Of a DNA stretch of 64,000 bases, positions 60,832 through 64,000 are shown in pieces (positions within the stretch are counted from its first letter, which is position 1; every line of letters begins with the position of its first letter). The notes beneath the pieces were generated by a model. The model had not been told where the DNA came from. It saw nothing but the letters and a program-made list of their open reading frames with translations, and made no database searches. This DNA comes from a virus (Duplodnaviria > Caudoviricetes): the IMG/VR virus record IMGVR_UViG_3300042154_002208; one strand, 5' to 3'. The position numbers were made by a program, and so were the translations under genes.

Positions 60832-61215
60832 ATGATAAAGAACTTTTCAATCGGTGCAGAAGTCGAGATTCAAACTCGGTGGAAATCGAATATATTGGGT
60901 GAAGAATATCAGGATAATATATTCAAAGGTAAAGTCGTTAATAATCCTAAATGGTTAGATAATGATTATGTCTCTGTATATACAGGTAATCCAGAATATC
61001 CCACATCCCATATTAATAAGCGATTTATTGTTGGATTTGATTTTCCAGATAATCGAGTAGAAACTCGTATATTCCGGATTAAATCAAAATCGAAAGGACA
61101 TATCTATAATGTCGTTTCAGATAACGGTATTGTTTCCTGTAGTTGTGTAGGATTTCAATTCCGTAGAACTTGCAAGCATGCAAATAAAGTTAAAGAATTT
61201 ATCCAAAATGCTTGA
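60832..61215 (+). CDS. SWIM zinc-finger protein
   Basis: CSCVGFQFRRTCKH; start at ATG 60832 after the promoter. Confidence 0.8.
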   Translation: MIKNFSIGAEVEIQTRWKSNILGEEYQDNIFKGKVVNNPKWLDNDYVSVYTGNPEYPTSHINKRFIVGFDFPDNRVETRIFRIKSKSKGHIYNVVSDNGIVSCSCVGFQFRRTCKHANKVKEFIQNA

Positions 61216-61240
61216 CAGGCCAGCCGAAAGGCTATATAAT
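61212..61240 (+). promoter_or_regulatory. Sigma70-type early promoter
   Basis: TTGACA-17-TATAAT. Confidence 0.85.
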
Positions 61241-61884: not shown

Positions 61885-61924
61885 AGAACCCTCGGCACTT
61901 CTACAGTCCGAGGGTTTTCCTTTT
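61885..61924 (+). terminator. Intrinsic terminator upstream of the tRNA array
   Basis: AACCCTCGG...CCGAGGGTT plus T-tracts. Confidence 0.75.
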
Positions 61925-61949
61925 GTGACATGCTTTAGTACCCTTACAT

Positions 61950-61978
61950 TTGACAAGGATACTAAAAGATGTTATAAT
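61950..61978 (+). promoter_or_regulatory. Sigma70-type promoter of the tRNA array
   Basis: TTGACA-17-TATAAT. Confidence 0.85.
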
Positions 61979-62039
61979 AAGTTTAAATAGATCGTTATTT
62001 AAGCTAAGTTCTTTTAAAATTTGCGCATGATATTATTGT

Positions 62040-62113
62040 ATCCGGTTAGCTCAATAGTAGAGCATTCGACTGATAATCGAAAGACAGAGGAGCGTTACCT
62101 CTACTGGATACCA
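62040..62113 (+). tRNA. tRNA-Ile(GAT), non-canonical T-loop
   Basis: TTCGA-CTGATAA-TCGAA arm; T-arm AGAGG-AGCGTTA-CCTCT; CCA. Confidence 0.75.
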
Positions 62114-62119
62114 AATTTT

Positions 62120-62195
62120 GTCCCGTTCGTCTAGAGGCCTAGGACACCACCCTTTCACGGTGACTACACCAGTTCGAATCTGGTACGGGACGCCA
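62120..62195 (+). tRNA. tRNA-Glu(TTC)
   Basis: Cloverleaf, CTTTCAC loop, CCA. Confidence 0.92.
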
Positions 62196-62233
62196 TTATT
62201 TTGTGCATTACCAAGTGTATAAAACAATGGTAC

Positions 62234-62311
62234 GCCTAGATGGCAGAGTGGTCAAATGCAACGGATTGCAAATCCGTAAGATCGTCAGTTCGAATCTGAC
62301 TCTAGGTTCCA
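62234..62311 (+). tRNA. tRNA-Cys(GCA)
   Basis: ACGGA-TTGCAAA-TCCGT; U73; CCA. Confidence 0.92.
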
Positions 62312-62321
62312 AAAATAATGC

Positions 62322-62350
62322 TTGACACAAGTGTGTTAAGATGTTATAAT
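62322..62350 (+). promoter_or_regulatory. Sigma70-type promoter inside the tRNA array
   Basis: TTGACA-17-TATAAT. Confidence 0.85.
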
Positions 62351-62360
62351 TAAGTTAATT

Positions 62361-62552
62361 AATTGGGGTTACCCGCACCAGTAGGTAATATAACAAGTGT
62401 TCAAGTCGACGGACTAGAGCTTTTATATTGCACGAAAGATGGAAACGAAGCCGCAAGGTTGATACGGTGGTCACGCTGGAGTATGTGGGCCTGTAATGTT
62501 GAGGCAGAAGGCACAAGAGACGGTCTTGTGAGATATGCGTAGTCCCCCAATT
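62361..62552 (+). ncRNA. Unassigned structured ncRNA candidate A
   Basis: AATTGGGG/CCCCAATT closing stem, multiple internal hairpins. Confidence 0.6.
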
Positions 62553-62563
62553 AAAAAGTTTTT

Positions 62564-62639
62564 GGTCTGTTAGTGTTAGCGGTAAGCACGCGAGCCTGTC
62601 ACGCTTGTAGCAGGGATTCGAATTCCCTACAGACCGCCA
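62564..62639 (+). tRNA. tRNA-Asp(GTC)
   Basis: Cloverleaf, CTGTCAC loop, G73, CCA. Confidence 0.92.
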
Positions 62640-62644
62640 AGTTA

Positions 62645-62710
62645 TGGTCTTAGTCTATAAATGCATAAAGAGAGTCTAAGTTAAATGGCACCTCAAAGTG
62701 GGACCAACCA
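62645..62710 (+). other. tRNA-like element (acceptor-type stem + ACCA, no clear cloverleaf)
   Basis: TGGTCTT/GGGACCA-A-CCA. Confidence 0.35.
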
Positions 62711-62714
62711 TTTT

Positions 62715-62905
62715 AGAACCCGCCGGAGTAACGTCTGGCTAGTATGACCCATACGAAGCGAAGTGAGTTCGTCACTCAAGGGTGGTAGTCTTTTTACCTA
62801 AAGGCCGTTGGCAGCACGAGAGCGGTCCTTGTCGGGGAGCGGGTGGAAGGTACGCATGGGGGATATGATAGCGTCATATTTTTCTGTACTATAATTACCG
62901 CCGGA
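62715..62905 (+). ncRNA. Unassigned structured ncRNA candidate B
   Basis: GC-rich, at least six hairpins between tRNA-Asp and tRNA-Leu. Confidence 0.55.
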
Positions 62906-62920
62906 GGACGCAGAGCATTT

Positions 62921-62997
62921 GCCTAGGTGACGGAATTGGTATACGTGTTGGTCTTAGAAGCCAAATTTTGAGAGTTCGAGTCTCTCCTTAGGCACCA
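62921..62997 (+). tRNA. tRNA-Leu(TAG) with short variable loop
   Basis: TTGGT-CTTAGAA-GCCAA; 5-nt variable region; A73 CCA. Confidence 0.85.
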
Positions 62998-63090
62998 TAT
63001 TGAAACATTCTAAACTGGACGCAGGTTCTAAGAAGTAAGACCTTGATTGATCCCCAAGAAGGTATGGAGAGCAAGAGTGTTTCAATATGG
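62995..63090 (+). ncRNA. Long-stem inter-tRNA element 1
   Basis: CCATATTGAAACATTC/GAGTGTTTCAATATGG 16-bp stem. Confidence 0.55.
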
Positions 63091-63164
63091 GGGTGTAGCT
63101 CAGTTGGGAGAGCGGTTGCTTTGCAAGCAATAGGTCGCAGGTTCGATCCCTGTCTCCTCCACCA
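63089..63164 (+). tRNA. tRNA-Ala(TGC)
   Basis: G3:U70, TTTGCAA loop, CCA. Confidence 0.93.
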
Positions 63165-63170
63165 ATTTAA

Positions 63171-63244
63171 CTCGGTGTAGTTTAATGGTAGAATTCGTGG
63201 TTTGGGACCATGAGACGGAAGTTCGATTCTTCCTACCGAGACCA
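63171..63244 (+). tRNA. tRNA-Pro(TGG)
   Basis: TTTGGGA loop, CCA. Confidence 0.92.
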
Positions 63245-63252
63245 TAGTTTTT

Positions 63253-63328
63253 TGGCCTATAGCTCAGTTGGTAGAGCGTTTGACTGTTAATCAAAATGTC
63301 CCTGGTTCGAGCCCAGGTTGGCCAGCCA
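63253..63328 (+). tRNA. tRNA-Asn(GTT)
   Basis: CTGTTAA loop, G73, CCA. Confidence 0.93.
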
Positions 63329-63333
63329 AATTT

Positions 63334-63418
63334 GGAGATGCCGCCGTAATGGTATGGCAGGAGACTGTAAATCTTCCGACTCACGTCACAATTGGTTCGA
63401 TCCCAATCATCTCCACCA
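63334..63418 (+). tRNA. tRNA-Tyr(GTA)
   Basis: CTGTAAA loop, long variable arm, CCA. Confidence 0.92.
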
Positions 63419-63444
63419 TTTTTAATTTTTAACAAGGAGCAGTT

Positions 63445-63585
63445 ATGAAACATAAGATGATCGTCAAGCAACGTAACCGTTTCGTTGTTTTGGCTTTACA
63501 ACGCAAAGCGGGAGTCCATCGTAAAAGCAACAAAGCTTTGCGAAGGCAACATAATGCGAGTATAGCTCAGTTGGTAGAGCAGTAG
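63445..63585 (+). CDS. Small basic protein (RKAGVHRKSNKA) overlapping tRNA-Lys
   Basis: AAGGAG RBS; 46-aa ORF translated by hand; stop inside the tRNA. Confidence 0.55.
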   Translation: MKHKMIVKQRNRFVVLALQRKAGVHRKSNKALRRQHNASIAQLVEQ

Positions 63586-63631
63586 ACTTTTAATCTATTG
63601 GTCGTGGGTTCGAATCCCCCTACTCGTACCA
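63556..63631 (+). tRNA. tRNA-Lys(TTT)
   Basis: CTTTTAA loop, CCA. Confidence 0.92.
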
Positions 63632-63720
63632 TATAAAAACATTCTTGTCAGCACTGTGGGAAGCGCAGATAGACAATACTAGAACAAGGTTCGAATCCAA
63701 ACAAGAGTGTTTCTATATGG
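63629..63720 (+). ncRNA. Long-stem inter-tRNA element 2 with internal T-loop-like motif
   Basis: CCATATAAAAACATTCTTG/CAAGAGTGTTTCTATATGG stem; GGTTCGAATCC inside. Confidence 0.6.
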
Positions 63721-63726
63721 CAATAT

Positions 63727-63802
63727 GCAGTTGTTAGTGTAACGGTTAACACCACGGATTGTGATTCCGTTAATATGGGTTCGATTCCCATACTTCTGCC
63801 CA
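63727..63802 (+). tRNA. tRNA-His(GTG)
   Basis: G-1:C73, TTGTGAT loop, CCA; two T:T acceptor mismatches. Confidence 0.85.
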
Positions 63803-63808
63803 GATTAG

Positions 63809-63883
63809 ATTGGGATATTTCAATTGGTTAGAAACGGGGATGTATAAGCCGCGTAATGTGAGTTCGACTCTCACTCCCAATCT
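63809..63883 (+). pseudogene. Degenerate tRNA (TAT at anticodon position)
   Basis: Good acceptor, D and T arms but broken anticodon stem and no CCA. Confidence 0.5.
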
Positions 63884-63886
63884 TCC

Positions 63887-63961
63887 GGTGATGTAGCATA
63901 ACGGTAGTGCACCAGCTTCATACGCTGCCCGGTGTAAGTTCGATTCTTACTATCACCACCA
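63887..63961 (+). tRNA. tRNA-Met(CAT), elongator-type
   Basis: TTCATAC loop, G1:C72, CCA. Confidence 0.88.
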
Positions 63962-63964
63962 TTT

Positions 63965-64000
63965 GCGCGGTTAGCTCAGTTGGTAGAGCGTCTGCCTTAC
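63965..64000 (+). tRNA. tRNA-Val(TAC), truncated by window end
   Basis: GCGCGGT-TAGCTCAGTTGGTAGAGC-GTCTGC-CTTAC. Confidence 0.85.

Follow-up and report, generated by a model that had tools for sequence, protein, structure and literature searches.

For fifty years it has been known that the tRNA clusters of phages also encode other stable RNAs. HDV-like ribozymes of phages sit downstream of tRNAs, and Y RNAs, which occur in bacteria and phages and whose 5' and 3' ends pair to close a multibranched module, lie near tRNA genes in some phages. The processing stalks of rRNA operons are cut by RNase III, and the UGGN/GGU elements of the T-box and RNase P pair with tRNA 3' ends. In T4, RNA C and RNA D (the species 1 and 2 RNAs; rnaC and rnaD) are non-tRNA stable RNAs of 119-139 nt that derive from the tRNA region, are co-transcribed with the tRNAs and have no known function (PMC3014915; PMC9697503). 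GOLLD and ROOL, large ornate RNAs of bacteria and phages, are highly structured and likewise of unknown function, and many of the phage-borne ones have tRNA genes as neighbours (PMC12286853). A 2023 survey of 10,006 csRNAs gives 8,495 unnamed candidate RNAs predicted from IMG/VR (PMC10690425).

We analysed a 64,000-nt stretch of viral DNA, referred to here as the window, and found that nucleotides 62359-62554 of its + strand are a real non-coding RNA gene, belonging to an uncatalogued family in the tRNA arrays of uncultured T4-like lake phages. The source phage, itself uncultured and T4-like, carries genes for a UvsX-type recombinase and a gp41-type helicase a few kb upstream of the RNA, and the best DNA matches of the window, with 60-70% identity, come from phages such as T4-like cyanophages and pelagiphages. 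A dense tRNA array runs along the + strand from 62040 onward in the order tRNA-Glu, tRNA-Cys, promoter, RNA and tRNA-Asp, with the RNA located in the 252-nt gap between tRNA-Cys (62234-62311) and tRNA-Asp (62564-62639). ARAGORN detected no tRNA or tmRNA in this gap. An earlier note on this DNA had placed an unassigned multibranched RNA in the array, about 10 nt past a TATAAT, and had taken it for the first product of an internal sigma70 promoter. Our results agree on each point: the promoter matches the consensus at 12 of 12 positions, carries the extended -10 TG and is conserved in 18 contigs, and the closing helix of the RNA starts at 62359, 8 nt past the -10, and ends at 62554, 9 nt short of tRNA-Asp. 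The limits given below for the primary RNA follow from the promoter geometry and the start of tRNA-Asp at 62564. The mature RNA probably corresponds to approximately 62357-62554. The features of the locus are as follows.

62322-62350, + strand: sigma70-type promoter (-35 TTGACA at 62322-62327, 17-nt spacer, TG at 62342-62343, TATAAT at 62345-62350)
62357-62563, + strand: predicted primary RNA segment; transcription likely begins with the A at 62357 or 62358, and the segment reaches up to tRNA-Asp
62359-62368, + strand: 5' strand of the closing helix P1, TTAATTGGGG, pairing with 62545-62554
62372-62375 (CCCG) and 62486-62489 (TGGG), + strand: helix P1b, with compensatory changes in four of four pairs and 95.7% of cells paired
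62378-62382 (CCAGT) and 62475-62479 (GCTGG), + strand: helix P1c, 100% of cells paired
62385-62431, + strand: P2, a long three-part arm with the tetraloop GACG (62408-62411) at its apex, closed by C62407-G62412
62432-62474, + strand: near-invariant core, made up of the junction strand ACGAAAGATGGAAACGAA, the P3 hairpin and then TGATACGGTGGTCAC
62450-62452 (GCC) and 62457-62459 (GGT), + strand: P3 hairpin with loop GCAA, whose stem covaries (GCC/GGU, GUC/GAC, ACC/GGU, GCU/AGC)
62493-62499, + strand: interdomain linker GTAATGT, of which the last four bases are the 5' strand of P4
62496-62499 and 62533-62536 (ATAT), + strand: helix P4, covarying in the long forms (AUG/CAU plus a second segment)
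62512-62530, + strand: P5 hairpin CACAAGA-GACGG-TCTTGTG, with a covarying stem and a fixed loop
62545-62554, + strand: 3' strand of P1, CCCCAATTAA, pairing with 62359-62368
62555-62563, + strand: 9-nt trailer AAAGTTTTT between RNA and tRNA-Asp, read from the sequence
62564-62639, + strand: tRNA-Asp(GUC), the next gene downstream; processing at its 5' end would define the 3' end of the RNA

Within 1.2 kb the window has three sigma70 promoters that match the consensus at 12 of 12 positions (61212-61240, 61950-61978 and 62322-62350), two of them with the extended -10 TG, and the second (61950-61978) heads the tRNA array. At 63445-63585 (+) the window also holds a 46-codon, very basic ORF (MKHKMIVKQRNRF...) with a good Shine-Dalgarno sequence (AAGGAG, 63434-63439) and no significant match in Pfam or PHROG. 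This ORF overlaps a tRNA-Lys gene (63556-63631) by 30 nt, and RNase P cleavage at the 5' end of tRNA-Lys would yield a stop-less message.

Neither strand of 62312-62563 gave a match in Rfam 15 with cmscan, either at the gathering threshold over the whole window or at E <= 10 on 61900-64000 (a search space of 2.1 kb). This is in line with the earlier note, which had judged by inspection that the RNA is not a tRNA, tmRNA, RNase P or 6S RNA. A blastn search (word 11) of 50,697 phage records returned no match to the RNA, the region is absent from the nearest virus record (G001), and a literature search for the core sequence brought up nothing relevant. Relatives were found in at least 70 uncultured viral contigs, and every member lies within a tRNA array. 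A 20-mer of the core, which had not been employed in an earlier promoter-based search, is present in 47 viral contigs. A covariance model, R1, was built from 32 distinct sequences and found a divergent subgroup at 21 further loci, in which most of the invariant P3 arm is replaced by a shorter, different arm. The family pattern consists of GGUUACC, followed by helices P1b and P1c, within which lie the P2 arm with its GNCG tip, the junction ACAYGAAR and the P3 arm, and lastly GUAAUG. The window fits this pattern, scoring 131.3 bits (E 1e-32) against R1 with all five core helices present.

In a prokaryotic set of 185,579 bacterial and archaeal species, one genome each, the core 20-mer matched 13 times; all 13 matches were within protein genes and lacked the flanking motifs, and they were set aside as chance. 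On present evidence the family is confined to phages. A single copy was found in each of the five large records checked. Two of these reach 90% completeness or more, one of 174 kb with terminal repeats and one of 147 kb. Both of these near-complete genomes are T4-like, with T4-type gp41 helicases 60-71% identical to that of the window. L176 and L226 are on the same 524-kb viral contig, which has two copies of the divergent subgroup as against the one copy per T4-like record checked. The family is uncatalogued relative to Rfam 15 and could be among the unnamed candidates of the 2023 survey (PMC10690425). The RNA had been called novel, and this applies to the family, which lacks an Rfam 15 match; it does not apply to the kind, of which T4 RNA C and RNA D are precedents (PMC3014915; PMC9697503).

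As a single sequence, the window's RNA folds only modestly better than chance (z = -2.97; 1 of 200 shuffles), and the case for the RNA therefore rests on comparison with its relatives. Covariation backs seven helices. In the MAFFT alignment of the core, 92.9% of the cells form standard pairs, a figure that falls to 27-43% once the 3' partners are displaced by 1-3 columns; both bases have changed in 25 of the 31 pairs, and 500 shuffles never attained any of the observed measures. When the divergent subgroup was added, 94.9% of the cells paired and compensatory changes were seen at 28 of the 31 pairs, in an alignment that was fitted to the covariance model and leans towards the structure. For the core helices, 95% of the cells pair versus 32-41% with slid partners. 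P1 and P5 also covary, and G-U pairs are frequent, which assigns the RNA to the + strand.

In P1, T-A is replaced by C-G in a compensatory manner in L087, L096 and L101, and relatives carry AATCGGGG/CCCCGATT, the change from AATTGGGG to AATCGGGG occurring jointly with that from CCCCAATT to CCCCGATT. The closing helix had been drawn in the earlier note with a continuation, CGCA/TGCG; the outer part TTAATTGGGG/CCCCAATTAA was borne out by these changes, and the continuation was not, being broken independently on its two sides (CTCA in L090, TGCT in L087), with its 5' side belonging to the covarying helix P1b. The latter takes forms such as CCAA/UUGG, CUAA/UUAG and CCUG/UAGG in the family. A further proposed pairing, GGTCAC/GTGGGCC, conflicts with the covarying helices and had to be abandoned: GGTCAC falls within the invariant core, and GTGGG supplies the 3' strand of P1b. 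P1c is invariant in the main group and reads CCGUU/GACGG or CCAUU/GAUGG in the divergent subgroup, where two pairs have changed on both sides in 13-14 distinct sequences. Three other core pairings (a hairpin CGGUG-GUCA-CGCUG, CCA with the UGG of GAUGG, and GGUUACC with GGUGGUC) were dropped, since the divergent subgroup has compensatory changes for CCAGU/GCUGG.

The other three hairpins of the earlier description emerge from the comparison as drawn, or nearly so. The P2 arm (strands GTAATATAA/TTATATTGC, cap AGTC-GACG-GACT) has compensatory changes in 19 of 19 pairs, and the G at 62430 is specific to the window as compared with its relatives. The GCAA-loop hairpin, P3, is supported as GCC-GCAA-GGT; its extension (GAU with GUC, AC with GU) is only predicted. 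In P5, both partners have been exchanged at four of the five stem pairs, in 14-20 of the 32 sequences, and the loop GACG(G/A) is constant. P4 shows no variation among the short forms. Approximately 60 nt of the core are identical or nearly so in the 32 distinct main-group sequences. The linker GTAATGT is also almost unchanged there, with A as its first base in three members and the remainder invariant, and it reads GUAAUGA in the divergent subgroup. The P2 loop is GNCG across the family. We considered whether its GACG could serve as an Asp codon for tRNA-Asp(GUC), and rejected the idea: the second loop base varies (GACG, GCCG or GGCG), and the neighbours of the RNA are mostly not tRNA-Asp. Complementarity of GGUGGU to the anticodon stem of the window's tRNA-Glu is not kept in the tRNA-Glu of other members, and a T-box resemblance of GGUGGUCACGC was discarded, with no T-box match and the segment missing from the divergent subgroup.

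The earlier statement that there is no ORF is not strictly correct, in that a 59-codon frame beginning with TTG spans 62363-62542, and could in principle encode a 59-residue peptide. The window and L090 keep this frame open. It is not conserved: it is interrupted in near-identical relatives, with longest open runs of 41 aa in L082 and 44 aa in L087, and in most others, the run falling to 33 aa. Moreover, a ribosome-binding site is absent, the peptide has no Pfam match, relatives carry indels in P2 and P3 whose lengths are not multiples of three, and the substitutions compensate base pairing. There is next to no chance that the peptide is real, and we regard this reading as effectively refuted already. 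The stretch is not coding, and the description of the locus as a non-coding RNA is upheld by the strong covariation among relatives and by its presence in RNA libraries.

Sixteen RNA runs, mostly from lakes or other freshwater, hold parts of the 1.1-kb stretch searched. Four of them were aligned to the stretch, and parts of the stretch without cover were given no weight. The library contigs are assembled and show presence, not transcript ends or strand, and RNA libraries can contain DNA. A lake metatranscriptome (X3) contains a 170-nt contig that corresponds to 62373-62542 only, and a separate contig begins at 62548. In a second run (X4), the family core (62444-62480) reaches a summed word depth of 2253, against 0-5 for the window's non-conserved flanks. 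This depth, which is similar to that of tRNA-Glu bins, comes from contigs of relatives, whose loose ends are long-form family sequence; RNA of the family is abundant in lake RNA samples. In a third (X1), a single contig spans tRNA-Cys, the RNA and tRNA-Asp, and could be a precursor transcript or DNA. RNA-library contigs from two studies join 62638 to 62715, skipping 76 nt from tRNA-Asp to the next structured RNA, and are most simply a deletion variant in related phages.

The identical promoter was found in 18 related viral contigs, where it precedes either of two unrelated RNAs. In seven of these it is followed by the present RNA with few substitutions, and in the other 11 by an RNA of almost equal length, designated type B, which occupies the following slots.

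L005, L084-L086, L088, L089, L092-L094, L097 and L098, after the promoter: type B RNA, approximately 220 nt

Type B is a widespread family in its own right: its 26-mer GATCCGGTGGCAGAAAACCGTTAGCG is present as an exact match in 75 viral contigs, with further loci at L154-L217, and Rfam gave no match. The possibility that it is a diverged homologue was dismissed, as model R1 matched none of the type B slots. In other phages type B lies directly downstream of tRNA-Glu (six loci inspected). The helicases of the phages in which the two RNAs alternate are about 86% identical. The RNA is not essential to the lineage, because close relatives without it carry the other RNA in the slot. The exchange of the two alleles suggests an accessory role, perhaps linked to host range or counter-defence.

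Outside the lineage of the window, the RNA measures 226-269 nt, lacks a promoter of its own and contains an extra hairpin, P6, and a second P4 segment. These long forms adjoin tRNA-Glu(UUC) in every locus with a visible neighbour, at 1-10 nt from the tRNA genes or overlapping the CCA end. At 26 long-form loci the RNA begins 1 nt past the CCA of tRNA-Glu or overlaps it; at nine, tRNA-Glu starts 1-6 nt downstream of the RNA, and the upstream gene is tRNA-Gln in all seven of these where it is visible. In the divergent subgroup the RNA is upstream of tRNA-Glu and type B directly downstream. P1 of the long forms comprises 13-23 bp and covaries, and in 26 of 27 distinct members this closing helix extends, with no shift of register, across the N73-CCA of the upstream tRNA. 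The opposite strand is UGGU, and CGGU in L131, where N73 is G. This NCCA helix is absent from the window and its 11 close relatives, in which the promoter replaces the junction with the upstream tRNA. The window form thus lacks the P6 hairpin, the second P4 segment and the NCCA helix of most relatives, and, to judge from this loss of features, its copy could be decaying. A third conserved element occurs directly 3' of the long-form RNA in L100, L102, L110, L204 and others. Its ends are of the TTAGTTTAG...CTAAACTAA type, its hairpin stem covaries (GAGU/ACUC or GGGU/ACCC), and its loop AAACGUCA is complementary to the UGACG of the P2 tip of the present family. On this complementarity, a loop-loop contact between the third element and the P2 tip is conceivable.

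Taken together, the geometry of the locus, the flush tRNA neighbours of the relatives and the T4 precedent allow us to infer a route of maturation. The host sigma70 polymerase would start at about 62357, from the extended -10 promoter inside the tRNA array. The RNA would fold co-transcriptionally into two domains held by the 10-bp helix that joins both ends: the first a three-way junction of P1c, P2 and P3 around the near-invariant core of about 60 nt, the second a P4-P5 arm in reduced form. Cleavage by RNase P where tRNA-Asp begins (62563/62564) would free the 3' side, and exonucleases may then trim the 9-nt trailer up to the closing helix, which would protect the mature RNA. Release by tRNA-type processing, which the earlier note had also proposed, is plausible, as the RNA of relatives is flush with or overlaps tRNA genes.

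As for what the RNA does once released, we consider it fairly probable that it is a stable RNA binding a partner in trans. The near-invariant core, the three-way junction and the two GACG-type loops, which stay fixed on covarying stems, point to a binding or catalytic surface and not a mere processing hairpin, and the dedicated strong promoter together with the alternation with another RNA family in the slot suggests an accessory function in trans. The released RNA would most likely act as a scaffold, decoy or sensor, with the two fixed GACG-type loops and the invariant junction as its binding surface, and its partner, whether protein or RNA, would probably belong to the tRNA or translation machinery.

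Several other explanations must be weighed against such a trans-acting RNA. The element might be a processing or 'punctuation' module acting in cis, which organises precursor cleavage by RNase III, E or P and maturation of the neighbouring tRNAs and is functionless after release. The long forms fit this well: the element is always flush with tRNAs, the closing helix extends over the upstream N73-CCA in nearly all distinct members, and a P1 of 13-23 bp suffices for a double-strand-specific nuclease. However, a processing signal needs neither a near-invariant core of this size nor fixed loops nor a conserved three-way junction, and the window form, which is driven from a promoter of its own, has a P1 of only 10 bp and includes no upstream tRNA in that helix, has kept the whole core. 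In addition, the core is very abundant in an RNA library, as expected for a stable product. We thus find the cis module unlikely, if the most serious of the competitors. It is still less likely, and in our view improbable, that the RNA is a selfish or neutral cassette that moves among tRNA arrays by recombination at conserved tRNA sequences with no benefit to the phage. The swapping of two unrelated families in one promoter slot, among phages with such similar helicases, would be explained, as would the variable order in which both families adjoin tRNA-Glu in other phages, and homing endonucleases are known in such arrays (for example SegB, in the T4 annotation). Nevertheless, a cassette of this kind is difficult to reconcile with the strong purifying selection on structure and sequence, the single copy per genome in the five large records, the strong dedicated promoter, the high RNA abundance and the lack of an attached mobility gene.

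A catalytic or ligand-binding RNA, either a self-cleaving ribozyme that frees itself or an aptamer for a metabolite or a tRNA end, was given slightly less weight again. Active sites and binding pockets typically show conservation of this kind, about 60 nt being nearly invariant among phages whose helicases share only 60-70% identity. The place directly past the tRNA CCA end recalls the phage HDV-like ribozymes, and UGGU opposite NCCA resembles the binding of tRNA 3' ends by T-box leaders and by the RNA of RNase P. Against this, no Rfam ribozyme or riboswitch model matched, the P3 arm is mostly replaced in the divergent subgroup, so that no universal active site can reside there, there is no downstream gene to regulate, and the window form lacks the UGGU tail. 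A long shot, which we rank just below these, is that the RNA binds tRNA ends, the UGGU beside the invariant core gripping the NCCA of tRNA-Glu or tRNA-Gln in cis within the precursor and possibly later in trans. If this were true, the role of the RNA during infection would be to sense tRNA 3' ends, to shield them or to act on them chemically, for example in protection against host defences that modify CCA or as a new class of ribozyme that matures tRNA.

Returning to the known systems, T4 RNA C and RNA D are alike to the present RNA in lying on the tRNA strand, inside the tRNA cluster of a T4-type phage and immediately next to tRNA genes. They differ in sequence and architecture. With filters off, R1 scored at most 9.2 bits (E 0.21) on T4 69500-74500, and this inside tRNA-Ile. 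T4 RNA C has a tRNA-like T arm and an acceptor-like end, neither of which is present in the window RNA, and the latter is larger than RNA C and RNA D, is built on a three-way-junction core and, in the lineage of the window, has its own sigma70 promoter. In T4 RNA C (L153, 1409-1547, minus strand) the hairpin tips UGAC(GG) and (G)CGUCAA are complementary over five bases; the tip UGACGG resembles the P2 tip of the present family, which may be chance. GOLLD and ROOL are several-fold larger and form multimeric cages, whereas the window RNA has no match to their Rfam models and nothing suggests that it multimerises. Y RNAs share the end-pairing stem around a multibranched module, but the window RNA lacks the tRNA-like module and the known Ro-binding helix, and the YrlA model (RF02553) had no match on 62312-62563, with weak matches on true tRNAs elsewhere in the array only. 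The end helix of the long forms resembles the rRNA stalks, and their UGGU resembles the recognition elements of T-boxes and RNase P; unlike in the latter two, the pairing with NCCA is in cis within the precursor, the window copy is without it, and no T-box or RNase P model matched.

With dozens of diverged members, a covariation-backed fold and a near-invariant core, the family provides a better comparative handle on the question posed by T4 RNA C and RNA D. The conserved grip on the tRNA NCCA end, the natural swap alleles and the abundance in lake metatranscriptomes are further handles, and the modest length of the RNA suits it to probing, pull-downs and structural studies, by which the old question becomes testable. 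The window RNA is the same kind of gene as T4 RNA C and RNA D, from a different family.
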